NCBI GenBank assembly: GCA_964586925.1
Contig: CAZPJI010000001.1
Location: forward strand, 63,280 to 127,279
Length of the DNA: 64,000 nt
DNA from: an uncultured Gammaproteobacteria bacterium
GTDB taxonomy: Bacteria; Pseudomonadota; Gammaproteobacteria; JAKDMP01
Reading direction: 5' to 3'
The translations under genes and the position numbers were made by a program. This document shows, piece after piece, positions 41,427 to 59,112 of the stretch (position 1 is its first letter; every line of letters starts with the position of its first letter). The notes below the pieces were generated by a model that saw only the letters and a list, made by a program, of their open reading frames with translations, made no database searches and was not told where the DNA came from.

Positions 41427-41587
41427 TTGCTTACTCCATTCCGATCAACCACATATGTTTATTCAGTATTTCATCAAGATCGGACATCCGTCTTGATCGC
41501 GGTCAATCAAGGAAATCCCCGGTTCACCATCGTCCCTGAAGTAGAGTTATCATTATTGAAAGTTTTGGGTATTCCGGGAGCAGACAT

Positions 41588-41914
41588 ATGAAAGCATCTC
41601 AGATATTGTTATCGTTGGGTTTGTTGACCATACCGCTGGTTTCTATGGCCGCAGCGCCCTCCAAACAAGCAAAAAAACTGTATGGCGATCATTGTGCAAT
41701 GTGCCATGGCAGTGACGGAAAGGCAGTTATGCCGGGCGCAGGAGATATGACAGATCCCAAAGGTCCCCTGTCGAAGCCGGATAGCGTCCTGGTCGAGAAT
41801 ACACTCGCTGGGATCGGGAATATGCCCGGGTTCAAGGGACAGCTGACCAAGGATCAGATTTCCGCGATCCTTGCTTACATGCGGGCGGAATTCAAGGTAA
41901 AGGCCAAGCACTGA
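41588..41914 (+). CDS. Class I monohaem c-type cytochrome (periplasmic)
   Basis: It has a signal peptide, a single CAMCHG haem-binding site and a distal Met ligand region (GNMPGF). It is 108 aa. Confidence 0.8.
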   Translation: MKASQILLSLGLLTIPLVSMAAAPSKQAKKLYGDHCAMCHGSDGKAVMPGAGDMTDPKGPLSKPDSVLVENTLAGIGNMPGFKGQLTKDQISAILAYMRAEFKVKAKH

Positions 41915-42474: not shown

Positions 42475-42616
42475 TGCCGGCCGGACGGTTTGGCGTGGAG
42501 GCGGGCGGCTATGCGATTGACCTGGATCAACTCGAAGCCTGTTTACAGGCCGGGAATCCGGCATGATATTCGATCAGGTGTAATCTGGTAGCGGTTCACC
42601 AGTGGGTGGTTCTGCA

Positions 42617-42874: not shown

Positions 42875-43165
42875 ATGTTCAGTGGCAGCTCGGGCGAGTT
42901 GGCCCTCATATTTCTGCTGATGCTGCTCGTTTTCGGACCGGAGCGGCTGCCTGGGCTTGCCCGTAATTTCGGCAAACTGGTCCGCCGCTCCCGGATCCTC
43001 GTGCAGTCGGTATGGAATCAACTGGAAGATGAAATAGACCGTAGCGAAAAAGCTCAACGTAACAAGACCGCTGCTGCAGAACTCGGACGGCAAGTACAGG
43101 TTCCCGGCTCGGACAGGCAGGCACGGTCTGCCGAAAACGTGACAAATGATGATGCACAAGCTTGA
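42875..43165 (+). CDS. tatB: Twin-arginine translocase subunit TatB
   Basis: MFSGSSGELALIFLLMLLVFGPERLPGLARNFGKLVRRSR matches the TatB N-terminal consensus. It is 96 aa. Confidence 0.85.
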   Translation: MFSGSSGELALIFLLMLLVFGPERLPGLARNFGKLVRRSRILVQSVWNQLEDEIDRSEKAQRNKTAAAELGRQVQVPGSDRQARSAENVTNDDAQA

Positions 43166-43253: not shown

Positions 43254-44033
43254 ATGTTGGGTCTGCATAAACGCCGCGACGATAATGAGGAAGCCACGCC
43301 CCTTATTGCGCATTTGCTGGAAATAAGACGGCGGTTGCTGATTGTTGTCGGGGTCTTTGTCGTGGTTTTGATCCCGTGCGCCCTGTTTTCCCGCCAATTG
43401 TTCGTGCTCCTGGCTCTGCCGATCATGCAGCGCCTTCCGGCCGGTTCCTCGATGATCGCAACGGGGGTTGCATCTCCCTTCCTTACGCCGTTCAAGCTTG
43501 CGGCCGGCGTGGCTGCATTCGCCTCCGTTCCCGTGGCTCTGTATCAGGCGTGGGCTTTTCTGGTTCCGGGGCTTTACAGACGTGAGCGTCACCTGCTTGG
43601 CCCATTGCTTGCCCTCAGCCTGTTACTTTTCTACCTCGGCATGGCTTTTGCCTATTTCGTAATTGCGCCCCTGGCGTTGCATTTCTTCATTTCCATGGCG
43701 CCGCCCGGTGTTAAGGTCATGACGGACATCGGAAGCTATTTGAGCTTCACTATGACGTTGTTCTTTGCTTTCGGCTTTGCCTTCGAACTCCCGATTATCG
43801 AGGTGGCCCTGGTCTGGCTGGGTGCGTTAAACGTGGAAAAACTGCGCAAATTCCGTCCCTATATGCTGATTAGCGCATTCATTTTAGGCATGTTGCTCAC
43901 GCCGCCTGACATGTTCTCCCAAACCTTGCTTGCGATTCCGCTCTACGGGCTTTATGAGCTGGGAATACTATTGTCCCGTTTCATGCTCAATCCAGATGCT
44001 GAGTTGGCGACGGAAACGGGCAACTCCGAATAG
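43254..44033 (+). CDS. tatC: Twin-arginine translocase subunit TatC
   Basis: The 259-aa protein has six TM helices and TatC N-terminal motifs (PLIAHLLEIRRRLL, FSRQLFVLLALP). Confidence 0.9.
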   Translation: MLGLHKRRDDNEEATPLIAHLLEIRRRLLIVVGVFVVVLIPCALFSRQLFVLLALPIMQRLPAGSSMIATGVASPFLTPFKLAAGVAAFASVPVALYQAWAFLVPGLYRRERHLLGPLLALSLLLFYLGMAFAYFVIAPLALHFFISMAPPGVKVMTDIGSYLSFTMTLFFAFGFAFELPIIEVALVWLGALNVEKLRKFRPYMLISAFILGMLLTPPDMFSQTLLAIPLYGLYELGILLSRFMLNPDAELATETGNSE

Positions 44034-44065: not shown

Positions 44066-45073
44066 TCAACAGATGCGGGGCAGGGGCTCGTTCTCGAGTT
44101 CTTCGAGTACTCGTTCCCCGCCAAATTCCGTACGGACGACCACTTCCGGGTAGCCTGATTGGACTTCGCCGATAATGACCGCACCAGGTGCCGCCCCCGT
44201 TTCCCGCAGCCTGCTCACCGCGGCCTCGGCTTCTTTTCCGTCCATGACGGCGACAATACGTCCCTCGCAAGCCAGATAGTAAGGATCGAAGCCCAGGATT
44301 TCACACACCGAAGCAACCGGGGGGCTCACAGGTATGAAAACTTCCGACAGGTACAGTCCGAGACCGGTCGCGCGTGCGATTTCGTTGGCGACGGTCGCGA
44401 CGCCGCCGCGCGTGGGATCCCGCATGAAGCGCAGCCCCGAAAACATGCGCAAAACACGGGCCGCGGGCAGTACGCTGGCCGCATCTGAGTGCAAGTCTCC
44501 GCTCAAGCCATAGTCTTCCCGGGCAAGCAGGACCGCGGCGCCATGATCGCCAACGGAGCCCGTCAGCACGATTTTGTCGCCGGGGCGAATCCGGTCCATT
44601 CCCAGGCTAAGTCCTTGCTGCTTGAGCCCGACGCCGGTGGTGGCGAAGTAAACACCGCCACACTCCCCACGTCCCACAACCTTGGTGTCGCCCGCAACGA
44701 TGGTCACCTCGCAGGCACGGGCGGCGGCAGACATGGAATCCAGCAGGCGTTCGAGAAGGGCAATCTCGAGCCCTTCCTCGAGGAAGGCGTTGAGAGTGAG
44801 GTATCTGGGTTCGGCGCCAGAGACGGCCAGGTCGTTGACGGTGCCGTGAATGGCTAACGAACCGATATCGCCACCGGGAAATTCCAGCGGCTGCACGGTG
44901 AAGCCATCGGTGGTGATCATCAGCTCTCCCTCCGCCGGCCAGGGTAGTTGCGCCGCATCGACGTTGACATCCAGGAGGGGGGAGGCAAGCCGGGACGCGA
45001 AAACGTTTTCGATCAGTTGCCGCATGAGTTTGCCGCCGTTACCGTGCGCAATGATGACATGGCTATCGTGCAT
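44066..45073 (-). CDS. hypE: [NiFe]-hydrogenase maturation factor HypE (carbamoyl dehydratase)
   Basis: It has the PurM-like fold, an N-terminal HGNGG and the C-terminal PRIC cysteine motif. It is 335 aa. Confidence 0.92.
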   Translation of the reverse strand: MHDSHVIIAHGNGGKLMRQLIENVFASRLASPLLDVNVDAAQLPWPAEGELMITTDGFTVQPLEFPGGDIGSLAIHGTVNDLAVSGAEPRYLTLNAFLEEGLEIALLERLLDSMSAAARACEVTIVAGDTKVVGRGECGGVYFATTGVGLKQQGLSLGMDRIRPGDKIVLTGSVGDHGAAVLLAREDYGLSGDLHSDAASVLPAARVLRMFSGLRFMRDPTRGGVATVANEIARATGLGLYLSEVFIPVSPPVASVCEILGFDPYYLACEGRIVAVMDGKEAEAAVSRLRETGAAPGAVIIGEVQSGYPEVVVRTEFGGERVLEELENEPLPRIC

Positions 45074-45085
45074 GAGCCCCCCGAA

Positions 45086-47431
45086 TCAAGTTAATCCGTT
45101 ATCCGTGCCTGGCACGGACTGAACCATGCCCGCGCGTGCCGCGGCCTCTATTATCTGACCATAAGACAAGCCGCCATCGTTAACCGGTAACTGCCGGGGA
45201 AGCAGCACTTCAAAGCCTTCCCGCTCCAGGCGTGCAATTGCGGCCTCGGTAAGGACGCGGTTCTGGAAAACGCCGCCGGTCAATGCAATCCTTGAGATGT
45301 CGTGCCGTTCACGCAGAGTCATGGCCTGATCCACCAGAGCCCGGGCCAGGGTGGCATGGAATGCCGCGGCGCGTTCCGCCGCCGGACGTGAATGGTCGAG
45401 CTGGGCGGAAAGCAACGGCTTCCAATCGGTGACGAGCAGGCCCTTTTCCGTTTCCCGGATGGGCAACGGCATGCCCTCGGCTTGAAGATCCTGCGCCAGT
45501 GCCTCCAGTTGCATGGGAGCCTGTCCGTCGTAGCTGACGGAATGGGTACCGGCGACAATGGCCGAGGCCGCATCGAAAAGCCGCCCCACGCTGCTGGTAT
45601 GGGGGCTGTTGAGGCCATCATGCCAGGCTGTGCGCAGCAGCGGATCGGCAAAAGCTTCTCCCGCTTTCCAGGCAAGACCAGCTTCCCAGCACAGTCCGAG
45701 TGCCGAACGCCAGGGTTCGGTGATGACACGTTCTCCCCCCGGCAGGCGGAATGGCCGCCAGGTTGCGACGCGCCGCCACGCGCCGGGATACCCGAACAAG
45801 GCTTCCCCGCCCCAGATCGTGCCGTCTTCGCCCAGCCCGGTGCCGTCCCAGGCAAAACACAGCAGCGGTTCGTTCAGCATGTCGAATTCGCCTGCGGCGA
45901 CACTGGCGTGGGCGTGATGGTGGAACACTTCCGTTACCGGCAGACCGCTGTTCTTTGCCCATCGGGAGTTGGGGAAGTCGGGGTGAGCGTCGCAGACGAG
46001 CGCTTCGGCACGTACGCCGTAAAGTTTTTGCAGATCGGCGCACACTTGTCGGAATACCCGGCGCGAGCGGGGGCTTGCGAGATCGCCTATATGGGGCGAG
46101 ACCACAATACGGTCTTCCCAGGCGAGCGCCACAGTAGTCTTCATGAAGGCGCCGACGGCAAGGAGCGGGCGCTGCAGGCGGAAAGGCAAATCGAGTTCCA
46201 GCGGGGCGATGCCGCGGCCGAGCCGGATCCGCAGCAGTCCGCCCGCGGCGGGCCGCAGCACCGGGTCGTCGGCAGGCCGCTCGATGGGCCGGTTGTGATG
46301 CAGGAACGCGTCGGCGACCCCACCCAGGCGTTTCTCGGCCTCGTTGGGATCGGTCAGGACCGGTTCGCCGCTGACGTTCCCCGAAGTCGCCACCACGGGG
46401 CGTTCGAAGCCCCCCAGCAATAGGTGGTGCAGCGGACTGTATGGCAGCATGAGCCCGATCTCGGTCAACGAGGGCGCGATTCCAGGGGCGAGCGGGGCAT
46501 CGTCGCGGCGCTCGACCAGCACGATGGGACGGACGGGATCGAGCAGGGCTTCGGCTTCCGTAGACCCCATGCCGGCGAGAGCGCGGGCCCACTCAAGTCC
46601 GTCATCGCCGGTCGCCGGAATCATGAGCGCAAGCGGCTTGTCGGGCCGGTGCTTGCGGCCGCGCAGCCGCATAACGGCGTCTTGGTCCGCTGCATCACAA
46701 AGCAGGTGATAGCCGCCGATGCCGCGCACGGCAACGGTTTCGCCGGCGCGCAGGGCGTCCAGGCAGGCCGCGAGGGCCGCTTCCGTATCCTCCACGGCCG
46801 GTTCGCCCGGGCGCGACCATGTCAAACCGGGACCGCATACCGGGCAGGCCAGGGGTTGGGCATGGAAGCGCCGATCCAGCGGATTTTCGTATTCCTTCCG
46901 GCAATCCGGGCAGAGCGTGAAGCCGGCGAGCGTCGTGTTGGGCCGGTCGTAGGGCATTGCGCGGATGATCGTGTAGCGTGGCCCGCACTGCGTGCAATTG
47001 ATGAACGGGTAACGGTTGCGGCGGGCGGCAGGATCGTTGAGTTCGGCAAGACAATCGTCGCAGGCGAACTGATCGGGGGGCACGTGGATGCTTGCCGACT
47101 TTGCGGTCTCGCTTTCACGGATGACGAAGCGGTCGTAACCCTTCCGCGCACTTTCTTCATCACGCAACAGATGGGGGCGTGCCAGCGGAGGCGCTTGGGC
47201 GATCAGTTCCCGGCTGAATTGGGCCAGTGCCGAATCATTGCCTTCGACGTGAATATGGACTTCTCCACCGGTATTGCACACCCAGCCGGCGAGCTGGTAA
47301 TGGTGTGCCAGACGATAGACGAAGGGACGGAAGCCGACGCCCTGCACGCGCCCGACGACCGTAATATTGCGCCCCGCCAATACCGGCATTGCGACGGTTG
47401 CCGATGTCGGGTTTGAATTGGAGCGCGGCAT
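45086..47431 (-). CDS. hypF: [NiFe]-hydrogenase maturation carbamoyltransferase HypF
   Basis: It has an N-terminal acylphosphatase domain (VVGRVQGVGFRPFVYRLA), two CxxC-x18-CxxC zinc fingers and YrdC and Kae1-like carbamoyltransferase domains. It is about 780 aa. Confidence 0.93.
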   Translation of the reverse strand: MPRSNSNPTSATVAMPVLAGRNITVVGRVQGVGFRPFVYRLAHHYQLAGWVCNTGGEVHIHVEGNDSALAQFSRELIAQAPPLARPHLLRDEESARKGYDRFVIRESETAKSASIHVPPDQFACDDCLAELNDPAARRNRYPFINCTQCGPRYTIIRAMPYDRPNTTLAGFTLCPDCRKEYENPLDRRFHAQPLACPVCGPGLTWSRPGEPAVEDTEAALAACLDALRAGETVAVRGIGGYHLLCDAADQDAVMRLRGRKHRPDKPLALMIPATGDDGLEWARALAGMGSTEAEALLDPVRPIVLVERRDDAPLAPGIAPSLTEIGLMLPYSPLHHLLLGGFERPVVATSGNVSGEPVLTDPNEAEKRLGGVADAFLHHNRPIERPADDPVLRPAAGGLLRIRLGRGIAPLELDLPFRLQRPLLAVGAFMKTTVALAWEDRIVVSPHIGDLASPRSRRVFRQVCADLQKLYGVRAEALVCDAHPDFPNSRWAKNSGLPVTEVFHHHAHASVAAGEFDMLNEPLLCFAWDGTGLGEDGTIWGGEALFGYPGAWRRVATWRPFRLPGGERVITEPWRSALGLCWEAGLAWKAGEAFADPLLRTAWHDGLNSPHTSSVGRLFDAASAIVAGTHSVSYDGQAPMQLEALAQDLQAEGMPLPIRETEKGLLVTDWKPLLSAQLDHSRPAAERAAAFHATLARALVDQAMTLRERHDISRIALTGGVFQNRVLTEAAIARLEREGFEVLLPRQLPVNDGGLSYGQIIEAAARAGMVQSVPGTDNGLT

Positions 47432-47597
47432 AAAGCGGCCTCAGGTCCGGGCGTCGGCCGGTGAGGGAATGGCGTTGAAAGAAGTCACGTTGCAGTCTCC
47501 GGCCGTGCGAAAAACACTGGTGCTCTCGCAAAGCTGCAGAACCCGCAAAAAATAATTTCTTTTCTTTGCGACTTGGCGCCTTTGCGGGAGTTTCTTT

Positions 47598-49340
47598 TCA
47601 CGTCTTTATATCCATTGGCGCAGCCTCGGGAACCTGCCACCCGAGCTGCCGGTGCCGGGCCAGGTAGAGCGGCGTCCAGGCATGGGGCACGCGGTAGACG
47701 AATTTGTAGCGGGCGACGTGATAGCTCGGATCGAATCCGTAGAAGTTGAGCCGCATCCGCTCCAACTCTTCCTCGCGGTAGGCCCTAAGCGGCTTGGCGG
47801 CCTCGTCGCGACTCCTGCGCCGGTCTTTCGCGGCGAGGCGGCGGGCGAAGTCCGCGGGATGCGCAAGCCTTTGTGCACGCGCACGCACGTCCTCCATGAA
47901 AGCGCCGGGTTCGGGGCCTGCTTCATCGTCAAGCAGGCCCCAGGATTTTGCCGCTCCGGACAGCACCGGAAGCCGGTGTTGCATGATGCGTCCCGATTCG
48001 TCCGCGCCCACGCGCCGCGGGAGCAGGTACGTCCAGTATTCCGAGCCGTACAGGTTACCCATGTTCTGGTAATGGGGATTGAGGACGATGCCCCGGCGCG
48101 CATAGATTTCATCGGCCGCCAGGGCCAGGAAAACTCCGCCCGCGCCCGCATTGCCCCTGAGCGCTGCGATTGTGAGCTTGTCCGCGGTAGTGATGATCTC
48201 CTCCGCGAGATCATCCATGGCATTGATGTTGCGCCAGGATTCATCGGCCGGGCTGGCGGCGGCCTCGATGGTATTGAGGTCGAGGCCGTTCGACCAGAAA
48301 TCCCGTCCACCCATGAGAACGATGACCCGCGTGGGGCGAGAGCACGCGTGGCGATACGCCGCCAGGAGCCGGCGGCAGCGCGCCGTGCTCATGGCGCCGT
48401 TGTAGAAATCGAAGTACAGATATCCGACCGCGCCGTCTTCCTGGTAAAGGATGTCCATGTATCCGATATCGTTCGGGGCAGCCGTTTCTGAACACGCTTC
48501 CGGCACTCCTGCAAGGCGTGAATCGCCGAGTGCGGCGACTGCCGGCAGTTTGAAAGGCAGGGCGGCTTCGCCGAGGGCGCGCAGATGACCGATCCAGATC
48601 GCACCGTCGCCTGTCGCCCGGCAAACCGCGCCGTGGTATTGGGTCAGGATATCTCCGGGTTTGCCCCGAAAACCCATGGCAGGATGTGCGTCGACGGTCC
48701 GGCAGGGCAGGCCGAGGATTTCATCCTCGACGCCGGGATTGCCGTCGCCGGCCCATATCTTGCGTAGCGCGGTGCGCGTGTCGTCGCCGGCCCAATCGAT
48801 CCTGCGCTCAGATTGGCGCATCATTGGCCGCCAGCCGCGGCCAGCGGCGCCCGGGAAATTTGCAGCAGGAATCGGTTCGAAGCCGGGTTCGCCGGCGTGC
48901 GCCACGGCCTCGAGCACCGCCTGCACGGCCGCTTCCGTTACTTCGAATCGGTAGAGACTGCTCTTTCGCGCTTCGCGCATGGGGAAACCGCGCGCTGCCC
49001 ATACCGGTCCGGCGTCCATTTCGGCCTCGGCTTGCAACACGGTTACGCCCCAGTATGCCTCCTGTTCGAGAATCGCCCGGTCCAACGCGGAAGGGCCGCG
49101 GTCGCCGGGCGGACCAGGATGGACGATGAGGCAGCGGTGCCGGCGCCACACGGCTTCGGGGATGGCACGCTTGAGGTATGGGGCAACGATGAGGTCGGGC
49201 TGAAACAGATCGACCGCTTCGATCGTGGCCGGATCGTTGATGTCGAGTTCGACCGAAAGTTCGTGCCCGCGCTCTGCCAACTCCGCGTAAATACGTTGGC
49301 TCAGGCTGTTGAATGTATGACAGAGCAGGAGAATACGCAT
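47598..49340 (-). CDS. hypX: HypX/HoxX hydrogenase maturation factor
   Basis: It has an N-terminal N10-formyl-THF transformylase-like domain (MRILLLCHTFNSLSQRIYAELAERGHEL...VHPGPPGDRGPSALD) and a C-terminal crotonase-like domain. The start chosen is MRILLL (49340), which overlaps the hypD stop (TGATG-type coupling). The track ORF extends to 49535. Confidence 0.8.
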   Translation of the reverse strand: MRILLLCHTFNSLSQRIYAELAERGHELSVELDINDPATIEAVDLFQPDLIVAPYLKRAIPEAVWRRHRCLIVHPGPPGDRGPSALDRAILEQEAYWGVTVLQAEAEMDAGPVWAARGFPMREARKSSLYRFEVTEAAVQAVLEAVAHAGEPGFEPIPAANFPGAAGRGWRPMMRQSERRIDWAGDDTRTALRKIWAGDGNPGVEDEILGLPCRTVDAHPAMGFRGKPGDILTQYHGAVCRATGDGAIWIGHLRALGEAALPFKLPAVAALGDSRLAGVPEACSETAAPNDIGYMDILYQEDGAVGYLYFDFYNGAMSTARCRRLLAAYRHACSRPTRVIVLMGGRDFWSNGLDLNTIEAAASPADESWRNINAMDDLAEEIITTADKLTIAALRGNAGAGGVFLALAADEIYARRGIVLNPHYQNMGNLYGSEYWTYLLPRRVGADESGRIMQHRLPVLSGAAKSWGLLDDEAGPEPGAFMEDVRARAQRLAHPADFARRLAAKDRRRSRDEAAKPLRAYREEELERMRLNFYGFDPSYHVARYKFVYRVPHAWTPLYLARHRQLGWQVPEAAPMDIKT

Positions 49341-50506
49341 CAGGCCGGCGACCGACATATTTTTTCGGATACAGGCTGCTCGGCAAGACCGCGGTGATGG
49401 CGGTACTTGTAGTAAGCGGCGCAGGCGCCTTCGGAGGACACCATGCACGATCCGATAGGGTTGCTCGGGGTGCAGACGGTCCCGAATATCTTGCAATCCA
49501 TGGGCTTCTTTGCGCCGCGTATGATGGCTGGGCACTGGCAGGCCTTGTTTTCGGGCACCGGCCGCGCCACCAATCCGAACCGGCGTTCGGCATCGAACGC
49601 CGCGTATGCGTCTTTAATTTTAAGGCCGCTGTAGGGCACGTTCCCGAGGCCCCGCCACTCGAATTCGGCACGCAGTTCGAACACTTCGGCCACCAGCCGT
49701 TGTGCCTTCAGGTTGCCCTCGCGCGTAACGCCGCGCAAGAACTGGTTCTCTACCGTAGCCCGGCCCGAGTTGAGCTGATCGACGAGCATGCGGATCGAAA
49801 GGAGCACGTCGAGCGGTTCGAAGCCCGAAATCACGACCGGCTTCTGGTACTCCCGGGCGAAATACTCGTAAGGGCGGCTGCCGATGACGGTGCTCACATG
49901 CGACGGGCCGATGAAACCGTCCACCTTCACGCTACCCAGGGAGCGCACTTCCGGAGAGTCGAGGATGCTCTGGATGGCCGAAGGGGTCAGCACGTGATTG
50001 CAGTACACCGTAAAGTTGCGCAGCCCGAGGCGGCTTGCTTCCAGGATGGCCAACGCCGTGGGCGGGGTCGTGGTCTCGAAACCGATGGCGAAAAACACGA
50101 CGTTGTTTTCCGGGTTCTCCTGTGCGATCCGTACCGCCTCGGTTGCGGATGTAACGACTCTGACGTCGCTGCCCCTGGAACGCGCTTTGACCAGGCTGCG
50201 CTTTCGCGAGGCGGGGACACGCAACATATCGCCGTAGCTCGCAAGTATCACGTCGTCCCGTTCGGCCAGCTCGACAGCCAGATCCAGGCGCGGGATCGCC
50301 AGCACGCACACCGGGCAGCCGGGGCCGTGCACCAGCTCCACATTCTCCGGCAACAGATCCTGGACACCATGGCGAAAAATCGCATGGGTATGGCCGCCGC
50401 AGAACTCCATCAAGTGATAGCTGCGGCGCGGATCTACCTCTTGCGCCAACTTTCCGGCGAGGGCCGCGGCCGCCTGGCCGTTACGAAACTCGCGGATATA
50501 CCGCAT
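49340..50506 (-). CDS. hypD: [NiFe]-hydrogenase maturation factor HypD
   Basis: MRYIREFRN is the typical HypD N-terminus. It has the CGxH, GPGCPVC and C-terminal Fe-S cysteine motifs. The start is taken at the internal Met (50506) of the track ORF. Confidence 0.9.
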   Translation of the reverse strand: MRYIREFRNGQAAAALAGKLAQEVDPRRSYHLMEFCGGHTHAIFRHGVQDLLPENVELVHGPGCPVCVLAIPRLDLAVELAERDDVILASYGDMLRVPASRKRSLVKARSRGSDVRVVTSATEAVRIAQENPENNVVFFAIGFETTTPPTALAILEASRLGLRNFTVYCNHVLTPSAIQSILDSPEVRSLGSVKVDGFIGPSHVSTVIGSRPYEYFAREYQKPVVISGFEPLDVLLSIRMLVDQLNSGRATVENQFLRGVTREGNLKAQRLVAEVFELRAEFEWRGLGNVPYSGLKIKDAYAAFDAERRFGLVARPVPENKACQCPAIIRGAKKPMDCKIFGTVCTPSNPIGSCMVSSEGACAAYYKYRHHRGLAEQPVSEKICRSPA

Positions 50507-50738
50507 CGGGCGATTCTCCAATGGCCTCTGCCAGCTCGGCAAAGAGCGCCAGTGTCTTTTCCGCTTCTTCGACGTCGAGCTTGTTGATGGCATGGCCTAC
50601 GTGCACGATGACATAGTCGCCCGGTTGCACGTCATCCAGGAGTGCAACGGATATATGACTGCGGATGCCGCCGGTATCCACGAGTGCGATCTCGTCCGGA
50701 AGCAATTCCACGACTTGTGCGGGCACCGCGAGGCACAT
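50481..50738 (-). CDS. hypC: [NiFe]-hydrogenase maturation chaperone HypC
   Basis: MCLAVPAQVVEL... has the N-terminal Cys2 signature of HypC/HupF. It is 85 aa and overlaps the hypD start. Confidence 0.9.
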   Translation of the reverse strand: MCLAVPAQVVELLPDEIALVDTGGIRSHISVALLDDVQPGDYVIVHVGHAINKLDVEEAEKTLALFAELAEAIGESPDAVYPRVS

Positions 50739-50741
50739 GAT

Positions 50742-51503
50742 TTAGCCCGTCCTGGACAAGTGCAGCGAGGGACGCATGCTCATTTGCTCTCCAAGCCATC
50801 CGAGCCAGGGATCAAGTGACTCAGCGAGTCGAGAGGATACCAGGAAGACAGGCGCTGCGTTGCCGATCGTACGCACGGCCTTTTCGGCTTTGTCCGGATC
50901 GAAATCGCCCTGCAAGGCTTGGAGCAGATCGGTCTTGGTCAATAGCACTAGATCCGACTCACGGAACATGACGGGATACTTGGCGGGCTTGTCATCGCCT
51001 TCGGTCGTACTCAGCAAGGTAACGTTGAGATGTTGCCCGAGATCGAAACTGGCCGGGCAAACCAGGTTGCCGACGTTCTCGATAAAAAGGACGTCGATTT
51101 CGTCGAGATCCATGCCGTGCAAGGCATCGTGCACCAGGTGGGCATCCAGATGGCAGGCCGTGCCGGTCGTGATCTGTACGGCCGGTACGCCGCAACTCCG
51201 GATCCTTTCTGCATCGTTTTCCGTTTCTAGGTCACCTTCTATGACTGCGATACGCAGATTCTTGTCCAAATTCCGAATTGTCGCTTCCAGGAGGCTCGTT
51301 TTTCCGGCCCCGGGGGATGACATCAGGTTTATTGCAAGGACACCATGGGCATCGAAATGCTCGCGGTTGTGCGCTGCCTGACGGTCGTTGACATCCAACA
51401 AGTCGGTCAACACCTCGATGGTATCTTTCCCGGAATTCGCATGAATCGCATGTGCATGCTGTTTATTTCCGGAAGTAATCGTGCAGCCGCATGTTTCACA
51501 CAT
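50742..51503 (-). CDS. hypB: [NiFe]-hydrogenase nickel-incorporation GTPase HypB
   Basis: It has an N-terminal metal-binding CxxCGC (MCETCGC), a G1 motif (SSPGAGKTSLLE) and the SIMIBI-class GTPase fold. The start is taken at the internal Met. Confidence 0.9.
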   Translation of the reverse strand: MCETCGCTITSGNKQHAHAIHANSGKDTIEVLTDLLDVNDRQAAHNREHFDAHGVLAINLMSSPGAGKTSLLEATIRNLDKNLRIAVIEGDLETENDAERIRSCGVPAVQITTGTACHLDAHLVHDALHGMDLDEIDVLFIENVGNLVCPASFDLGQHLNVTLLSTTEGDDKPAKYPVMFRESDLVLLTKTDLLQALQGDFDPDKAEKAVRTIGNAAPVFLVSSRLAESLDPWLGWLGEQMSMRPSLHLSRTG

Positions 51504-51903
51504 CTCTATGTTCCTCCACAAAGTCAGCGGATGCCGGCAGCGGTTCATACGAAGAGTCTTCGGTTTGCAGCTCCAGGCTCGCCAGTATCAGTTCATCTCC
51601 ACCCAGAAGCGTGGTGTGGTAGTCGCCGCAATTGGGACACAGCAGTTTGTTTGTCGGTACGACCGACTCCATACCGCAACCTTGGCAGCGTACCCTCGGG
51701 GGCATCTCCTCGGTCGCCAGAACCGCTTCTTCGGCCAGCGTCCCGTGGCGGGCAACAAGGAAAGTACGCTGCAACAGAACGGGTACGACGCCCGAAAGCG
51801 GACCGATCTTCAGGTCGATTCGAGTGACTCGTACAGCCCGGTTTTGCTGAGCAATTTCTTCGACTTGGGACAATAAAGCCTGGCATATGGCAAGTTCGTG
51901 CAT
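51496..51903 (-). CDS. hypA: [NiFe]-hydrogenase nickel-insertion protein HypA (with about 20-aa C-terminal extension)
   Basis: It has MHELAICQALL..., a MHE nickel-binding N-terminus and two CxxC pairs (CQGCG...CPNCG). Confidence 0.88.
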   Translation of the reverse strand: MHELAICQALLSQVEEIAQQNRAVRVTRIDLKIGPLSGVVPVLLQRTFLVARHGTLAEEAVLATEEMPPRVRCQGCGMESVVPTNKLLCPNCGDYHTTLLGGDELILASLELQTEDSSYEPLPASADFVEEHRDV

Positions 51904-51950
51904 CGGCATTCACCTCACAAAAAGTATAGAAGCAGCACAGCCGTAACCTC

Positions 51951-52051
51951 TTTGACTCAGATCAAATCCATGCCTTTCCAGTCTGTCCGGGCGTTGCGAG
52001 GCGGGTCGGAAAAGCAGATTGGATTAATTTCGCTCCTTTTGATCTGAGTCA
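51951..52051. promoter_or_regulatory. Long-range perfect inverted repeat TTTGACTCAGATCAAA ... TTTGATCTGAGTCA in the hypA / hoxM divergent intergenic region
   Basis: The sequence seen at about 51951-51966 is exactly reverse-complementary to about 52038-52051 (14-15 nt), about 70 nt apart. Each half contains a TGA-N6-TCA core. Coordinates are approximate (plus or minus 1). Confidence 0.5.
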
Positions 52052-52086
52052 GGTCACAGTCCCAACCGGCGAGCTAGCCTTTTCAA

Positions 52087-52632
52087 GTGGCTTGGCGGAG
52101 GGACAGAGGAATGCAGGCCAATAGTCTCGATTCGGAACTGGACATGGAAAGCGTGCAGGCCGAAACCGCGGTCCGCGCCACGGTATTGGGAATCGGCAAC
52201 ATCCTTCTCGGCGATGATGGTGTCGGCATAGCCGTTGTGGAAGCATTGAGGGATGAGTTGTCCGCGCAGGGCGTCAAGATCGTGGATGGCGGCACATTGA
52301 GCTATACGCTGCTTCCGCTGATTGAAGATACCAACGTGATGATAACGGTCGATGCTGGCCGCCTCGGAAGTGTGCCCGGGTCAGTCTCTACCTTCAAGGG
52401 TGCGGCCATGGACGAATACCTCGGGAGGGCTTCATCCGGCACGGTCCATGAAGTCAGTTTGCGGGACCTTATGGATATGGCCAGGTTGAGAGATTCACTG
52501 CCCGAACACCGTGCCCTGGTGGCCATTCAACCTGATAGCGTCGACTGGGGCAGCACATTGACGCCGCGGGTGGCCGAAGCGGTACCCGTTGCAGCCGATG
52601 CCGTGCGCCGGCTGCTGGAGGTGTGGCAATGA
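52087..52632 (+). CDS. Hydrogenase maturation endopeptidase (HoxM/HupD/HyaD family)
   Basis: It has LGIGNILLGDDGVGIAVVEAL (a GNxxxxDDGxG nickel-dependent protease motif). The likely start is MESVQAE (52144). Confidence 0.85.
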   Translation: MAWRRDRGMQANSLDSELDMESVQAETAVRATVLGIGNILLGDDGVGIAVVEALRDELSAQGVKIVDGGTLSYTLLPLIEDTNVMITVDAGRLGSVPGSVSTFKGAAMDEYLGRASSGTVHEVSLRDLMDMARLRDSLPEHRALVAIQPDSVDWGSTLTPRVAEAVPVAADAVRRLLEVWQ

Positions 52633-53102
52633 ACGAACCGATGGACATGGCCGGGTCCGCAGCGGCTGCCGGCCGACAACCGCCCCCGGATGAAGCGGAG
52701 ACGATAGGCGCGGGCTTCGCCGCCATTCTAGGCGAGCTGGTTCAGCTTCTCGAGCGTTTTTCAGAAACCGGCGAACGCGGCGTGATCGATCTTCACACCC
52801 TTCCCATGTCGCCGGTGGAGTACGAGAATCTGCGCGATGTCCTCGGACGGGGAGAAGTGGCCGCCGAGCTTGACATTGGCGGTCCATCGTCAATTTACGA
52901 AACGAGTTTTCACGGCGCTTGGTGGGTGCAGCACTGCACGCCGGACGGTGAGGTTGCGGCGGAATATATCGAGGTCGCCGCGGTGCCTGAAATGCTGCTT
53001 GCGGATGCCTCCGAAGCCCGCCGCGACGCACAGCGATTGAGGACCCGGATTGCGCACTGGGAACCCTTAGCGAGTAACGAGGGGGTGACAGAAGATGACT
53101 AG
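52623..53102 (+). CDS. Hydrogenase-operon protein of unknown function (159 aa)
   Basis: Its start overlaps hoxM and its stop overlaps hynS. It has an acidic C-terminus and no motif I can assign to HyaE/HybE/HupH with confidence. Confidence 0.5.
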   Translation: MAMNEPMDMAGSAAAAGRQPPPDEAETIGAGFAAILGELVQLLERFSETGERGVIDLHTLPMSPVEYENLRDVLGRGEVAAELDIGGPSSIYETSFHGAWWVQHCTPDGEVAAEYIEVAAVPEMLLADASEARRDAQRLRTRIAHWEPLASNEGVTEDD

Positions 53103-54240
53103 ATCCGAATCCGTCCAAACGGTCAATGACGCACTTGACAGGCAAGGCATCAGTCGACGGACTTTCCTGAAGAGCTGCATGCTTGCCGCTTCCGCGATGG
53201 CTTTGTCGCCGCTGGCCGGATCGGCCATGGCAAAGCAGCTGGGCAAGATGAAACGGCCGTCCGTAATCTACCTTTCGTTCCAGGAGTGTACGGGATGCCT
53301 GGAATCGCTGACCCGTTCTTTCAGCCCCACGTTGGAGCATTTGATATTCAACGTAATCTCCCTGGACTACGACGACACCCTCATGGCCGCCGCCGGCCAC
53401 CAGGCCGAAGCCGCCAAGGAGCAGGCGATGCGCGACAACTACGGCAAATACGTCCTTGTCGTAGACGGTGCCATCCCCTTGGCGTTCGGCGGAGCATGCC
53501 ATACGGCGGCGGGCAAGAGCGCGATCCAGATCCTCAAGGAGGCGGCCAAAGGAGCCAGGGCGATCGTTGCGGTGGGCACATGCGCGACCTTCGGTGGCCT
53601 TCCGCATGCCAATCCGAATCCGACCGGCGCGATAGGCGTGTCGGATCTGATCAAGGACAAGCCTGTGATCAACGTCTCGGGTTGTCCGCCCATTCCCGTG
53701 GTCATGGCGGGAACGATCATGCACTTCTTCGCTTTCGACAAGGTCCCGGAACTGGATGAGCTGCATCGCCCGAAGATGTTCTATGGCAATACGATCCACG
53801 ACCGTTGTTACCGCCGGCCTTTCTACGATGCCGGCAAGTTTGCCGAGAGCTTCGACGACGAAGGTGCGCGCAACGGCTGGTGCCTGTACAAGCTCGGCTG
53901 CAAGGGGCCGACCACGTACAACTCCTGTGCCACGCTGAAATGGAACCAGGGGGTGAGTTTCCCGATCGAGTCCGGACATCCTTGCCTGGGCTGTTCCCAG
54001 CCGAATTTCTGGGACGGCGGCAGCTTCTACGCGGCGTTACCCACGCCGAAGTGGGGCAAGGCCGGCGAAGGCAATCCTTCCAAGGCGGGAGAGATCGCCG
54101 GTGCCGCGGCCGGTATCGGGGCTGGGGTCGGGCTTGCGGCTGCGGGACTGTCGCGTTATCGCCAATACCGCCGGGCCATAAAGGCGGCGGCTGCCGCAGA
54201 AAATGGCGACGACAGCGACGGGCAATCAAAGGAGGAATGA
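53095..54240 (+). CDS. hynS: [NiFe] hydrogenase small subunit (HynS, Isp-type group 1)
   Basis: It has a Tat signal (SRRTFLKSCMLAASAMALSPLAGSAMA) and the Fe-S cluster Cys ladder (CTGC...GTCATFGG...CPP...C..C) of small subunits. It is 381 aa. Confidence 0.9.
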   Translation: MTRSESVQTVNDALDRQGISRRTFLKSCMLAASAMALSPLAGSAMAKQLGKMKRPSVIYLSFQECTGCLESLTRSFSPTLEHLIFNVISLDYDDTLMAAAGHQAEAAKEQAMRDNYGKYVLVVDGAIPLAFGGACHTAAGKSAIQILKEAAKGARAIVAVGTCATFGGLPHANPNPTGAIGVSDLIKDKPVINVSGCPPIPVVMAGTIMHFFAFDKVPELDELHRPKMFYGNTIHDRCYRRPFYDAGKFAESFDDEGARNGWCLYKLGCKGPTTYNSCATLKWNQGVSFPIESGHPCLGCSQPNFWDGGSFYAALPTPKWGKAGEGNPSKAGEIAGAAAGIGAGVGLAAAGLSRYRQYRRAIKAAAAAENGDDSDGQSKEE

Positions 54241-54243
54241 GTC

Positions 54244-54981
54244 ATGGATCTTCTGAGCATTGCACGCGGGCCGGCTCTCAAGGCGGCGTTGGCCATCTTT
54301 TTCTTCGGCATTACCTGGCGTCTGGTAACCATTTTCCTGCTGCGTCATAACTGGCAATTGAGCTTTGCCCGTGAGGGCAGGGCGGGCGCCTGGTCCGGAG
54401 CATTGAAATCGGTGTTTACTTTCCGCAGACCACGGCTCAGCCGGGCCAGGCGTAGTTCGATGGAAGCGACCGCAGACGCAGCCGTAGCGGTAGGCTCCCG
54501 ATCCTGGCCCCATCCGCCATTCGTACGCCGAACGCTCTATGGCGAGACGATCGGGTATCTCTATCACATCGGCCTGGCGCTCGTGGTCATTTTCGGTGCG
54601 CCGCATATCCTGGTGCTGAAAAGCTTCTTCGGTGTCGGATGGCCGGCTTTGCCGACGCCGATCATTACCATTATTTCCGTGCTTACGCTGGCGCTGCTCT
54701 TTGCGGCATTGATGCGTCGCTTGGGCAGCCCGGTGCTGCGCCATCTATCCAATTTTGACGATTATTTCAGCTGGAGCATCGTAACGCTGGTTTTTGCTAC
54801 CGGCCTCATGGCGCACGGACACCTTGGTGGCCCGTACCAGGATGTGCTGGCATGGCACATCCTCAGTTTTGATCTGTTGCTGGCGTGGTTCCCGTTCGGA
54901 AAACTCATGCACGCATTCTTCCTTACGCCGTCACGGGCCATCGCAGGTTATCTGCTCAAGAGAAGGGGGGCGCCGGTATGA
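54244..54981 (+). CDS. isp1: Isp1: NarI-like b-type cytochrome membrane subunit of the Hyn hydrogenase
   Basis: The 245-aa protein has five predicted TM helices with conserved His residues. It sits between hynS and the hdrD-like gene exactly as in the hynS-isp1-isp2-hynL loci of purple sulfur bacteria. Confidence 0.75.
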   Translation: MDLLSIARGPALKAALAIFFFGITWRLVTIFLLRHNWQLSFAREGRAGAWSGALKSVFTFRRPRLSRARRSSMEATADAAVAVGSRSWPHPPFVRRTLYGETIGYLYHIGLALVVIFGAPHILVLKSFFGVGWPALPTPIITIISVLTLALLFAALMRRLGSPVLRHLSNFDDYFSWSIVTLVFATGLMAHGHLGGPYQDVLAWHILSFDLLLAWFPFGKLMHAFFLTPSRAIAGYLLKRRGAPV

Positions 54982-56339
54982 CACCAGACAATCGTGTGTC
55001 GAGTGCGGCTGCCATCGCGGCCAGTGATATCCGCCAACCGCACGGTCATTATGACGAGGAGGGTGGGGCAAGCGCCCAGGCCCGAGTCAATGCCGCGGTG
55101 CGCAGCTTCGTGCTGGACGTGGGAGCCGTCTCGGCCCTGAGACTGGATTCATGCGTGCATTGCGGCATGTGCGCGGATGCCTGTCCCTTTTATGTCGCCA
55201 CGGACGATCCCCGCTATACGCCGATCCACAAGGTAGAGCCCCTGAAACAGACCTATAAGCGCGAAGCGGGACCCTTCGCGCCGTTCTTCAAGCTGTTGGG
55301 ACTCAAGCGCAAGGTTACGATCGAAGAGCTGCATGAATGGGAAGAGCTGCTATTCGACAGTTGCACCCTGTGCGGACGCTGCAGTCTGATTTGTCCGATG
55401 GGGATAGACATTACCGCGCTGATAGAAGATGCGCGCCACGGGATGTCGGAAGCCGGACTGGTGCCGAAGGCATTGTATGAGAAGGCCTACAGGCAACATC
55501 GCAGTGGCAATGTGTTCGGTCTGAGCAACGAAGAAATTACCCGCCGCCTTGCCGGGATAGGGCAGGAGCATGGGATAGATATTCCGATCGACCGTGCCGG
55601 TGCCGAGATCATGGTATGCACGACAGTCGAAGAAATGGATGCCTATCCGGCCACGGTTGCGGCCATGGTGCGGGTGCTCGAACATGTCGGTGCCAATTAC
55701 ACCTTCTGCAGCCAGGCGGTCGACGCGAGCAATTACGGTTACGTCGGAGGCAGTCTCGCATGGGAACGTGAAGGCATAGTGCGAATTGTCGAAGCGGCTA
55801 AGCGCTACGGTGTGAGAACCGTCGTCATGCCCGAAGATGCCTTTGCCTATGTTGCTTTGCGCTGGGAAGGGACCGAGCTGTATGGCAAAGCGCTGCCCTT
55901 CGAAGTGAAGCACATCAGTGAATTCATGCAGGAGGAACTGGCAGCCGGACGTCTTCGCCTGAAGAAAGGCAACGGTGCAGACGGCGGGGCCGTGGTGCTC
56001 CATGAGTCCAGCCAACTGCTTCGCCGCGGTGGTGTGGTGGGTGCGCCTCTCGACCTTTTGGAGGCGATGGGGGTGGCCTTCAAGCGGCCTGCCGATCACG
56101 GCGCCTTCGCATGGTGTTGCGGCGGAGGCGGAGGGGTTCTGGAAAACGAACGGGCTCAACCGTTGCGCTACCGGGTATTCGAAGCCCGGATGCGCGAAAT
56201 CGAGGCAACACAGGCCGACGAGATCGTTACCTGCTGCTCGGTCTGTCGGCGGACGTTTGATGATGGCGTGGACCGTTTCGGCTGGGACAAGCGCATTGTC
56301 GGACTCACGGAAATGGTGGCGGCGCACCTGGCCGGGTAA
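54978..56339 (+). CDS. isp2: Isp2: heterodisulfide-reductase (HdrD)-like Fe-S subunit
   Basis: It has two ferredoxin-type CxxCxxCxxxCP motifs (CVHCGMCADACP, CTLCGRCSLICP) and two CCG domains (WCCGGGGG). The start at 54978 overlaps the isp1 stop. Confidence 0.85.
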   Translation: MTPDNRVSSAAAIAASDIRQPHGHYDEEGGASAQARVNAAVRSFVLDVGAVSALRLDSCVHCGMCADACPFYVATDDPRYTPIHKVEPLKQTYKREAGPFAPFFKLLGLKRKVTIEELHEWEELLFDSCTLCGRCSLICPMGIDITALIEDARHGMSEAGLVPKALYEKAYRQHRSGNVFGLSNEEITRRLAGIGQEHGIDIPIDRAGAEIMVCTTVEEMDAYPATVAAMVRVLEHVGANYTFCSQAVDASNYGYVGGSLAWEREGIVRIVEAAKRYGVRTVVMPEDAFAYVALRWEGTELYGKALPFEVKHISEFMQEELAAGRLRLKKGNGADGGAVVLHESSQLLRRGGVVGAPLDLLEAMGVAFKRPADHGAFAWCCGGGGGVLENERAQPLRYRVFEARMREIEATQADEIVTCCSVCRRTFDDGVDRFGWDKRIVGLTEMVAAHLAG

Positions 56340-56386
56340 AAGGGCATCGCTTGAGCATGGGAGATGCCGGGAATCAAGGAAACGAT

Positions 56387-58132
56387 ATGAGTACGCAGAC
56401 CATAGTTGTAGATCCAATCACCCGTATCGAAGGCCATCTTCGGATTCAGGCCGAGATGAACGGAAATGCAATTGCACAGGCCTCGAGTTCGGGCATGATG
56501 GTTCGCGGTATCGAAATCATTCTTCGCGACCGCGACCCTCGCGATGCCTGGGCGTTTGCCCAGCGCGCTTGCGGGGTATGTACGCTGGTGCATGGAATTG
56601 CCTCCGTTCGCGCGGTTGAGAATGCGCTGCACTATCCGATACCCGACAATGCGCGTTTGATTCGCAATCTGATGATTGCACAGCAGTACGTGCACGATCA
56701 CGTCATGCACTTCTACCAGCTTCATGCGCTGGACTGGGTGGATGTTGTCTCGGCGTTGAAGGCCGATCCCAAGGCGACTTCTGCGCTGGCGCAATCGATT
56801 TCTGACTATTCGCGCTCTTCGCCCGGCTATTTCGCCGACGTGCAGGACAAAGTCAAACGGCTGGTGGAATCTGGACAGCTTGGCATTTTCGCGAACGGCT
56901 ATTGGGGGCATCCGGCATACAAGCTGCCGCCCGAGGCGAACCTGATGGCCGTGGCCCATTATCTGGAAGCACTTGCCTGGCAACGGGAGGCATGCAAGAT
57001 CCATACCGTGTTCGGAGGCAAGAACCCCCATCCGAACTTCGTGGTGGGAGGCGCACCAGTCGCCATCAGCGCTTCATCCGGCGGACAGTCGACCAATACG
57101 ACGGCTGTTGACATGGAAGGACTTGCACTCGTCGAGGACATCATCGGGAAACTTCGCAACTTCGTCGATAAGGTTTATCTGCCGGATACCGTTGCTATTG
57201 CTTCCTTCTACAAGGATTGGTTCAAGCCGGGTCACGGGGAAGGCACGGGCAATTTCATGACCTACGGGGAATTTCCCGGGAAAAGCATTGACGATCTTTC
57301 GAGTCTGATGATTCCACGTGGCGCGATCCTGAATCGGGATCTCACGCGCATTCACCCGGTGGATCTAGACGACCCGACTCAGGTACAGGAATTCGTCTCC
57401 CATTCCTGGTACGACTATTCGTCCGGGAAGAATACCGGTCTGCACCCTTACAAGGGCCAGACCAAACTCGATTACACGGGTCCCAAACCGCCCTTCAAAC
57501 TACTCGACACCAAGGGCAGTTATTCATGGTTGAAATCGCCGCGTTGGCGGGGACATCCCATGGAGGTGGGGCCGCTCTCGCGGGTGCTCATGCTGTATGC
57601 CAGCGGGCACGAGCAGACGAAATCGCTCGTCGACCAGACGCTCGCCAGGCTGGATTTGCCGATCGAAGCCGTCTTCTCGACCATGGGGCGCACAGCGGCC
57701 CGCACATTGGAAAGCAAGATCATTGCCGACGCGATGTCAGGCTGGTTCAGCGAGTTGATGAGCAACGTGAAGAAGGGCGATTTGAACACTTGGAACGGCA
57801 AGCTGTGGGAACCCTCTAGTTGGCCGAAGCATGCCGAAGGCGCCGGCTATACGGAGGCGCCGCGAGGTGCGCTCGCGCACTGGATCGTCATCGAAGACGG
57901 TTTGATCGACAACTACCAGATGGTGGTGCCGACTACCTGGAACGCGGGTCCGCGCGATGCGCAAGGCCAGGACGGCGTCTATGAGTCATCGATCATCGGG
58001 CAGAAGCTTTACGATACGACGCAACCGCTTGAGATACTGAGGACGATACACAGTTTCGATCCCTGCATTGCCTGCGCCGTGCACGTCAGCGACCCTGATG
58101 GCAAGGAACTGCTTCAGGTCAAGGTCTGTTGA
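56387..58132 (+). CDS. hynL: [NiFe] hydrogenase large subunit (HynL)
   Basis: It has the N-terminal RIEGH...RACGVCT motif (L1) and the C-terminal DPCIACAVH motif (L2) with the endopeptidase cleavage site. Confidence 0.93.
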   Translation: MSTQTIVVDPITRIEGHLRIQAEMNGNAIAQASSSGMMVRGIEIILRDRDPRDAWAFAQRACGVCTLVHGIASVRAVENALHYPIPDNARLIRNLMIAQQYVHDHVMHFYQLHALDWVDVVSALKADPKATSALAQSISDYSRSSPGYFADVQDKVKRLVESGQLGIFANGYWGHPAYKLPPEANLMAVAHYLEALAWQREACKIHTVFGGKNPHPNFVVGGAPVAISASSGGQSTNTTAVDMEGLALVEDIIGKLRNFVDKVYLPDTVAIASFYKDWFKPGHGEGTGNFMTYGEFPGKSIDDLSSLMIPRGAILNRDLTRIHPVDLDDPTQVQEFVSHSWYDYSSGKNTGLHPYKGQTKLDYTGPKPPFKLLDTKGSYSWLKSPRWRGHPMEVGPLSRVLMLYASGHEQTKSLVDQTLARLDLPIEAVFSTMGRTAARTLESKIIADAMSGWFSELMSNVKKGDLNTWNGKLWEPSSWPKHAEGAGYTEAPRGALAHWIVIEDGLIDNYQMVVPTTWNAGPRDAQGQDGVYESSIIGQKLYDTTQPLEILRTIHSFDPCIACAVHVSDPDGKELLQVKVC

Positions 58133-59112
58133 TGATGGCGCGGGAGGCAAAGTTCGGACACCGCCTGCTGGGGGTTGGATTGGTCGTTGCGGCCCTGAAT
58201 CTGGTGGCATTCGCCGGCTTGCTCAAGCTGGCAAGCATGGGTGCGGCCATTGGAGGCATTGGCACGCTCGCATACCTGCTCGGTGCCCGGCATGCCTTTG
58301 ATATCGATCACGTCGCTGCCATCGACAATGTGACGCGACGATTGCGCCAGAATGGACACAAGCCGACTGCCGTGGGGTTGTTCTTTTCCATGGGACATTC
58401 CACGATTGTTGTCGCGGCCACGGCTGTATTGCTTCTGGGGGGCGAGCATTTCCGCCGCTTGTTGCCGGTCTTGCAAGGGTGGGGGGGTGTCCTCGGCGCC
58501 GGGATATCGGCGGCGTTCCTCATCATGATCGGTACGGCCAATGTCGCTATCGCCCGGCAGGTATGGAGGACACGCGGGGAATCCACGGACGAGGCGGGCG
58601 CATGGGAAATCGAGGCTCTGCTCGAACGCCGCGGTTTTATGGCCCGGATCATGAGCTTTGCCTACCGGCGCATCGACAAGAGCCGGAAAATGTATCTGGT
58701 CGGCCTGCTGTTCGGTCTGGGTTTCGATACAGCCAGCGAGATCATACTGCTGGCCTTGACGGCTGCTGCCATGCACCAATACGGTCTGAGTCCCTGGTCG
58801 TTGCTCGGACTGCCCCTGCTGTTCGCGGCCGGGATGACACTGATGGATTCCGCCTGTGGTCTGGGCATATTGAGTCTCTACAATTGGTCCATTGCCGGAG
58901 GGCGGCGTACGTGGATAGTCAATATCGGCGTTACCGGGCTCTCGACACTGCTCGCGTTAGGGGTAGGGACCGTGGAGCTTTCCACGTCGTTTCATTGGTC
59001 CATGGTGCCTACCCTGGGCCTTGTTGCCGGCATCGGCGTCATGTTTACTTTGTTTACATTCAGGCGTCAGCCCGTGACCGGTCCCATCGAAGCCGAAGGG
59101 ATAAGGAATTGA
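58129..59112 (+). CDS. hoxN: NiCoT-family high-affinity nickel permease (HoxN/HupN/NixA)
   Basis: It has the signature HAFDIDHVAAIDN in TM2 and FFSMGHST. It is 327 aa with 8 TM helices. Confidence 0.85.
   Translation: MMMAREAKFGHRLLGVGLVVAALNLVAFAGLLKLASMGAAIGGIGTLAYLLGARHAFDIDHVAAIDNVTRRLRQNGHKPTAVGLFFSMGHSTIVVAATAVLLLGGEHFRRLLPVLQGWGGVLGAGISAAFLIMIGTANVAIARQVWRTRGESTDEAGAWEIEALLERRGFMARIMSFAYRRIDKSRKMYLVGLLFGLGFDTASEIILLALTAAAMHQYGLSPWSLLGLPLLFAAGMTLMDSACGLGILSLYNWSIAGGRRTWIVNIGVTGLSTLLALGVGTVELSTSFHWSMVPTLGLVAGIGVMFTLFTFRRQPVTGPIEAEGIRN

Follow-up and report, generated by a model that had tools for sequence, protein, structure and literature searches.

Why should a perfect inverted repeat lie between two divergently transcribed hydrogenase operons? 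In the stretch of DNA analysed here (64 kb in full; hereafter, the window), the genes for hydrogenase maturation and those for the enzyme itself are read away from each other, and the region that separates them holds two complementary arms. These could be recognised as DNA by a dimeric regulator, could pair with each other in RNA, could mark the ends of a recombining segment or could owe their likeness to chance. As judged from the sequence and from its comparison with related loci, the arms belong to two boxes which are very likely activator sites of the FNR/FixK family at two class II promoters.

The two operons and the repeat between them

The genes on both sides were identified as listed in Table 1. 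The preliminary description, which had placed a hyp maturation operon opposite a structural hydrogenase operon, proved essentially right in its gene calls; the gene that it termed hoxM is hynD. On the basis of its sequence, the structural operon on the plus strand is assigned to an Isp-type [NiFe] hydrogenase. The HynD protease forms a singleton cluster and its best match in contigs of species-representative genomes is 56% identical. The minus-strand operon includes a hypX-like gene. HypX has been linked to the maturation of hydrogenases when oxygen is present, which suggests that microaerobic control would fit this operon better than strictly anaerobic control.

Table 1. Positions of genes, boxes and predicted promoter elements in the window
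Feature	Position	Strand	Remarks
Glycogen phosphorylase/branching-enzyme operon	start 28684	minus	
Exact box, glgA	28765-28778		TTGACTTCGGTCAA
glgA	start 28829	plus	
Gene upstream of cytochrome c	40893-41426	minus	177 aa; internal duplication; no family match
Exact box, cytochrome c region	41493-41506		TTGATCGCGGTCAA
Small cytochrome c	41588-41914	plus	
Exact box, tatABC	42517-42530		TTGACCTGGATCAA; adjoins the hyp cluster
tatA	ATG about 42617		
tatB	42875-43165		after tatA
tatC	43254-44033		after tatA
hypE	44066-45073	minus	Pfam
hypF	45086-47431	minus	Pfam
One-mismatch box	47475-47488		TTGAAAGAAGTCAC
hypX/hoxX-like	47598-49535	minus	Pfam; formyltransferase and enoyl-CoA hydratase domains
hypD	49340-50593	minus	Pfam
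hypC	about 50481-50738	minus	from position and HupF_HypC calls in relatives
hypB	50742-51548	minus	Pfam
hypA	51496-51903	minus	first hyp gene; 135 aa; NCBIfam TIGR00100, E = 6.9e-25; aligns with PF01155 HypA of relatives
hypA Shine-Dalgarno	51910-51916	minus	GAGGTGA; ACCTC invariant in alignment A3; starts a predicted leader of about 13 nt
Predicted -10, hypA promoter	51923-51928	minus	TATACT; AGTATAG block almost invariant in alignment A3
Box 1	51952-51965		TTGACTCAGATCAA; contains arm 1; hypA promoter side
Arm 1	51953-51966		TGACTCAGATCAAA
A/T-rich block	52023-52030		ATTAATTT in the window, TTAATCGG in relatives
Arm 2	52038-52051		TTTGATCTGAGTCA
Box 2	52039-52052		TTGATCTGAGTCAg; contains most of arm 2; hynD promoter side
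Predicted -10, hynD promoter	52075-52080	plus	TAGCCT then TTTT; block CTAGnC-TTTT, same spacing in relatives
hynD	52111-52632	plus	HyaD/HybD-family maturation endopeptidase; PF01750; TIGR00072, E = 3.2e-37
hupH-like	52623-53102	plus	
hynS	53095-54240	plus	
isp1	54244-54981	plus	TmcC/HmcE/DsrM-like membrane anchor
isp2	54885-56339	plus	HdrD-like Fe-S/CCG protein
hynL	56351-58132	plus	
nicO	58129-59112	plus	NicO nickel permease

The length of the intergenic region, given earlier as 180 nt, had to be corrected: from the hypA ATG (51903) to the protease ATG (52111) it measures 207 nt (51904-52110). A repeat search recovered a perfect inverted repeat in it, with two 14-nt arms that are 100% complementary and lie 71 nt apart, so that the 14-15 nt arms about 70 nt apart reported previously were borne out. 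The 16-mer quoted at that time, TTTGACTCAGATCAAA (51951-51966), is present, but it is repeated over 14 nt only. In a scan of the whole window for perfect inverted repeats with arms of 14 nt or more at distances up to 150 nt, this was the only spaced pair, and a window search for the 14-mer with up to two mismatches found just these two places. The naive expectation for such a repeat is 64,000 x 150 x 4^-14, i.e. about 0.04 per window; under a random-sequence model, the repeat exceeds chance.

Each arm belongs to a complete FNR/FixK-type dyad

Inspection of the sequence around the arms revealed that each of them sits in its own 14-bp dyad with two half sites, sufficient for one dimer. In box 1 the half sites TTGAC and ATCAA surround TCAG; the TTGA-N6-TCAA core is exact and 9 of the 10 positions of TTGAT-N4-ATCAA are matched. 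Box 2, in which TTGAT and GTCAg surround CTGA, matches 8 of these 10 positions and has one mismatch to TTGA-N6-TCAA, located in the core (TCAg). Half sites of the FNR/FixK type read TTGA, whereas the CRP type reads GTGA...TCAC; in both boxes of the window the base before TGA is T rather than G. The preliminary description had likened the TGA-N6-TCA core of each arm to a half site of the CRP/FNR family. As to the family this was correct, with the FNR/FixK and not the CRP type being indicated, but each arm corresponds to a full dyad and not to a half site. Its proposal that a dimeric regulator could be bound at both promoters agrees with the presence of one site per divergent promoter.

Two near-palindromic copies of a consensus are automatically complementary at their core, so that only the six inner bases make the pair perfect. 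Since both arms are copies of one constrained binding-site consensus, the identity of these six bases is also all that is still unusual about the repeat. When read toward its own gene, each box is TTGATCTGAGTCA(A/G).

Conservation of the boxes in related loci

A total of 80 loci was fetched from species-representative genomes by means of an alignment of protease homologues (alignment A1); they are mostly from uncultured sulfur- and iron-oxidising Gamma- and Betaproteobacteria. Nine more loci, chosen around the closest metagenomic relatives, yielded six distinct sequences in which the protease is 57-69% identical to that of the window. The comparison set consisted of 90 loci, a few of which are near-duplicates, and alignment A3 was made of the window and the six distinct relatives.

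The divergent hypA / protease-hupH-hynS layout was found in 53 of the 90 loci. Exact TTGA-N6-TCAA boxes numbered 49 in the 36.3 kb upstream of the protease genes and 4 in the 615 kb elsewhere (1.35 versus 0.006 per kb), a more than 200-fold enrichment to which many lineages contribute. The preliminary description was ready to regard the repeat as a chance occurrence should the motif not be conserved upstream of hyp/hyn loci in related genomes; the motif turned out to be strongly conserved there. At least one exact box was present in 30 of the 53 divergent loci, two in 15 and none in 23; the arrangement is widespread, but not universal. In an unbiased count of N-TGA-N6-TCA-N dyads, those of the promoter regions had T/T flanks in 42 out of 67 cases and G/G flanks, as in CRP sites, in a single one, whereas outside the promoter regions T/T was the rarest class (4 out of 185). 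This excess of T/T flanks indicates that the sites are of the FNR/FixK type and not of the CRP type. A CRP-type site was ruled out by the same flanking base.

Invariant intergenic columns of alignment A3 are almost all confined to the hypA Shine-Dalgarno sequence, AGTATAG, box 1, box 2 and CTAGnC-TTTT; between the boxes, the sequence is not conserved. The six distinct closest relatives all retain box 1, box 2 and the two -10 elements, and each of them has an exact box at the position orthologous to box 2. The distance from box 1 to the hypA ATG is 47-49 nt in all close relatives. The spacing from box to box, 87 bp in the window, amounts to 83, 87, 96, 97, 99 and 100 bp in the relatives; a fixed helical phasing between the boxes was rejected, these spacings not being phase-conserved. 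A variable spacing together with an unconserved spacer points to two independent promoter modules and not to one structure of fixed geometry. The exact inverted repeat also failed to emerge as a conserved feature, since the two boxes of the relatives agree at 10-13 of the 14 positions and at variable spacing. The inverted repeat as such is not the functional unit.

How much of the repeat might then be due to chance, or be left over, without function, from a local duplication? None of the relatives has six identical inner bases, and the likeness of boxes within a locus does not significantly exceed that between loci (3.5 versus 3.06 shared inner bases out of 6; permutation test, P = 0.07), a result on which the idea that both boxes of a genome evolve in concert was also discarded. 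Both observations would suit chance. However, the boxes are enriched in this promoter region in many lineages, their distance to -10-like hexamers is conserved (see below) and the pattern of invariant blocks in alignment A3 suggests that selection acts on them. For the boxes, chance is refuted by conservation, and as an account of the feature it is very improbable; for the exact 14/14 identity it is the default reading. None of 132 cross-locus box pairings reaches the 6/6 inner identity of the window, which is a mild outlier, most economically explained by chance or by a local copying event. The paired boxes themselves are a real and almost certainly functional feature, and an ordinary one.

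Variant sites were noticed in two loci from Thiobacillus / Thiobacillaceae (L028 and L016), where two to three copies of TTGAT-N5-GTCAT replace the exact boxes between hypA and the protease gene; L028 has the variant box TTGATTCCTGTCAT twice. Such copies may represent a form of the site peculiar to that lineage.

Position of the boxes relative to predicted -10 elements

The -10 elements were located through alignment and positional statistics alone, and both predicted hexamers are moderate matches only. Box 1 is separated from TATACT by 23 nt and box 2 from TAGCCT by 22 nt. Similar distances were observed in the comparison set. All 16 modules of the hypA side, which come from several lineages, have a TAnnnT hexamer 21 or 23 nt past the box; among the 25 modules of the protease side, an offset of 22 nt from box to TAnnnT is the commonest (9 modules), and most of the others visibly have TA at 22.

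In class II FNR promoters of E. coli, the consensus TTGAT-N4-ATCAA is centred at -41.5; the box ends at -35 and the -10 hexamer is at -12, which leaves 22 nt between them, and the regulator, on a site that overlaps the -35 region, touches RNA polymerase. Relative to the predicted -10 elements only, the box-to-hexamer spacing in the window appears to be that of class II FNR promoters, with the box centre at about -41.5. Transcription would start at about 51916-51917 on the minus strand (hypA) and about 52087 on the plus strand (hynD). A generic sigma-70 scan of the intergenic region detected no -35/-10 pair, an outcome which is expected for activator-dependent promoters and is not positive evidence for them. 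The window promoters thus resemble those of E. coli in the match of the dyads to the E. coli consensus (9/10 and 8/10), in having T and not G before TGA, in the 22-23 nt to the -10 hexamer and in lacking a recognisable -35 element. They differ in that they belong to another organism and in the half-site preference of the set to which they belong: across loci, boxes read in the direction of transcription tend to TTGAT in the promoter-distal half and to GTCAA in the promoter-proximal half. Paired boxes have 3.5 out of 6 inner bases alike when mirrored and 2.3 out of 6 in direct orientation, and this mirrored likeness makes back-to-back promoters look like an inverted repeat.

According to the model that we favour, the region would contain two separate sites for a dimeric transcription factor from the FNR/FixK branch of the CRP/FNR family, recognising TTGA-N6-TCAA. 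As in class II activation, each site would have its centre about 41.5 bp upstream of the transcription start of a sigma-70 promoter, the two promoters standing back-to-back. Box 1 would activate hypA-hypB-hypC-hypD-hypX-hypF-hypE and box 2 would activate hynD-hupH-hynS-isp1-isp2-hynL-nicO. With a box of its own for each operon, the hydrogenase and the proteins for its maturation would be switched on jointly, most likely at low oxygen. The inverted repeat would result from the mirror-image arrangement of the two promoter modules.

Two further elements of the intergenic region were considered. The A/T-rich block, which is about 10 nt upstream of box 2 and partly conserved, may be a UP-like element or may be meaningless. 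A sigma-54 promoter was looked for by eye and rejected: the distance between GG (52021-52022) and GC (52032-52033) falls one base short of that of a -24/-12 pair, and the stretch lacks conservation in alignment A3.

Pairing of the arms in RNA and recombination between them

A long stem in either transcript had been raised as another use of the two arms. Paired in RNA, they would give the hypA or the hynD leader a long-range stem, which could act as an attenuator, a stabiliser or a processing site. The region does fold with the arms paired on both strands and does so better than shuffled sequences (z = -2.75 and -2.12), but the fold energy derives from the repeat itself. In alignment A3, 89.7% of the cells pair versus 85.4% in shuffles, with 10 out of 500 shuffles reaching the observed value, and five pairs are changed on both sides; however, related sequences without structure are known to surpass this kind of shuffle control, and the excess lies within the range that they give. 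Palindromic copies of a consensus pair by construction, and the seven invariant pairs are those of the TTGA/TCAA core, whereas the inner pairs are broken in one to four of the seven sequences. The arms are spaced by anything from 83 to 100 nt, across sequence that is not conserved. Both of them, moreover, lie upstream of the conserved -10 hexamers that they serve, so that neither predicted transcript includes both arms. An Rfam search gave no match for the region and a terminator scan of the intergenic region gave no terminator-like site. With the arms outside the predicted transcripts and the inner complementarity not kept in the relatives, a functional stem is highly unlikely.

Inverted repeats may also delimit a small invertible or recombinogenic segment, in this case a switch by which the two operons would undergo phase variation. 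With 14 bp of perfect inverted repeat on either side of 71 bp between divergent operons, the region has the outward form of such a switch. Yet the arms of the relatives, although they match at 10-13 positions out of 14, retain the FNR consensus, the -10 elements are outside the segment, and the flanking genes are hypA and the protease gene, with no recombinase adjacent. Known invertible promoters are far longer than 71 bp. The drift of both the spacing and the inner bases in the relatives argues against an RNA stem and a DNA switch alike, and for the latter we see next to no chance of its being correct.

Which regulator would bind the boxes?

The absence of a hoxA/hupR/hupUV-like gene from the window, noted in the preliminary description, was confirmed by Pfam scans, in which no NtrC-type and no cNMP-binding/Crp protein was found. 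A tblastn search of the 64-kb window for a CRP/FNR homologue, with E. coli FNR and CRP as queries, returned nothing better than E = 0.8. By analogy, control may be exerted by a global anaerobic regulator, as had been proposed. Four exact TTGA-N6-TCAA boxes are present in the window, all of them intergenic (glgA, the cytochrome c region, tatABC and hyp/hyn), and their location before genes of unrelated functions suggests a global regulon.

The TTGA-N6-TCAA motif is common to FNR, FixK, Anr, Dnr and FnrN, so that DNA alone cannot discriminate between several members of the family. The sites might bind a member that does not sense oxygen (FixK, Dnr/NnrR or another Cys-less protein), possibly dedicated to the hydrogenase genes and responding to a signal other than oxygen as such. 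The hypX-like gene, which suggests expression with some oxygen, would be in line with this, and so would the only hyn-linked regulator found. It is encoded in locus L025, from an uncultured proteobacterium, by a CRP/FNR-family gene (2881-3654) situated directly upstream of the hyn operon; TTGA-N6-TCAA boxes precede both the regulator gene (2649-2662) and the operon (about 3841-3854). The protein keeps an ETVSR recognition helix, which together with these boxes also speaks for the FNR/FixK reading in general, and is without the N-terminal Cys cluster; its match to the Fnr model runs from model position 50 on and scores 111.6 bits against a cut-off of 228. On the other hand, L025 is the sole locus out of 90 with such a linked gene, and the four exact boxes before unrelated functions look like a global and not a dedicated regulon. 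A sensor other than oxygen-sensing FNR is possible but not probable, and would be a refinement of the FNR/FixK reading (same mechanism, other sensor) more than a true alternative to it.

A more specific version of the same idea takes the inner bases into account. At inner position 9, both boxes of the window have A; of the 12 boxes of the relatives in alignment A3, 11 have G and the other has T. The boxes could be served by a Cys-less CRP/FNR regulator similar to that of L025, with a specialised role in hydrogen and sulfur metabolism and a signal that is not oxygen, in which case the mirror-identical 14-mers with A at position 9 would reflect an adaptation of both promoters to the specificity of this regulator. 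We consider this unlikely; were it true, it would amount to an undescribed hydrogenase regulon in uncultured sulfur-oxidising proteobacteria.

Relation to known hydrogenase promoters

A close parallel to the arrangement with an FNR/FixK-type box at each promoter is offered by the hyn (Isp-type) hydrogenase of Thiocapsa roseopersicina, the promoter of which is reportedly controlled by FnrT. Common to both are a hynS-isp1-isp2-hynL hydrogenase in a sulfur-oxidising proteobacterial setting and FNR-type boxes upstream of the structural genes, with induction at low oxygen being a prediction in the present case. Unlike the Thiocapsa operon, that of the window starts with the protease gene and hupH, and its promoter stands back-to-back with that of hypA, with a putative regulator site for each direction. 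In three Chromatiaceae loci of the comparison set (L035, L037 and L043), no exact box was found just upstream of the protease gene; lacking a clear box there, they argue that the window architecture was not simply inherited from the Thiocapsa system.

A second parallel concerns the maturation genes. According to PMC3534401, the hypBFCDEX operon of R. leguminosarum has an Fnr-type promoter (Hernando et al. 1995). In R. leguminosarum bv. viciae, as in the window, the hyp operon includes hypX, and the promoter described there has an anaerobox of the Fnr/FnrN type and drives the operon under microaerobic conditions (PMC3534401). As given in the same source, that promoter is an internal one of the cluster, preceding hypB, and a NifA-dependent promoter serves the structural genes, whereas in the window the structural and the maturation operons have a box each within one divergent region. 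More generally, hydrogenase transcription in facultative anaerobic proteobacteria has been described as being under Fnr control (Kovacs et al. 2005, cited in PMC5357620).

FNR-type control of hyp/hyn genes is therefore already known, and general knowledge of hydrogenase gene regulation is unchanged by the finding; what differs here is the operon layout, with one box per divergent operon. For a lineage that has been little studied, the finding yields a concrete promoter model that can be tested, in which one signal of the FNR/FixK family (presumably low oxygen) would turn on both the operon of an Isp-type uptake hydrogenase and that of its maturation genes. Among uncultured Gamma- and Betaproteobacteria that oxidise sulfur and iron, this back-to-back design is widespread, which should help to predict when they use hydrogen.

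Other boxes in the window

Further boxes occur in the window (Table 1). The exact box of the tat region is about 90 nt upstream of tatA, and no clear -10 hexamer was seen at 22 nt from it. The Tat system exports the hydrogenase small subunit, so that co-regulation of the tat genes would make sense. The hypX-like gene and hypF are separated by a short gap that holds a box with one mismatch; this box may belong to an internal promoter or may be there by chance. The exact box near the small cytochrome c gene lies between this gene and the divergent gene for a 177-amino acid protein, and AATACT is found 22 nt away from it on the minus-strand side. The segment from about 33500 to about 39600 contains few long ORFs of high GC3, according to a crude gene call, and may be foreign, degraded or non-coding DNA. 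The exact box between the glycogen phosphorylase/branching-enzyme operon and glgA is followed by TAACAT exactly 22 nt past its end, a class II geometry like that of the hyp/hyn boxes; the regulon may extend to glycogen synthesis.
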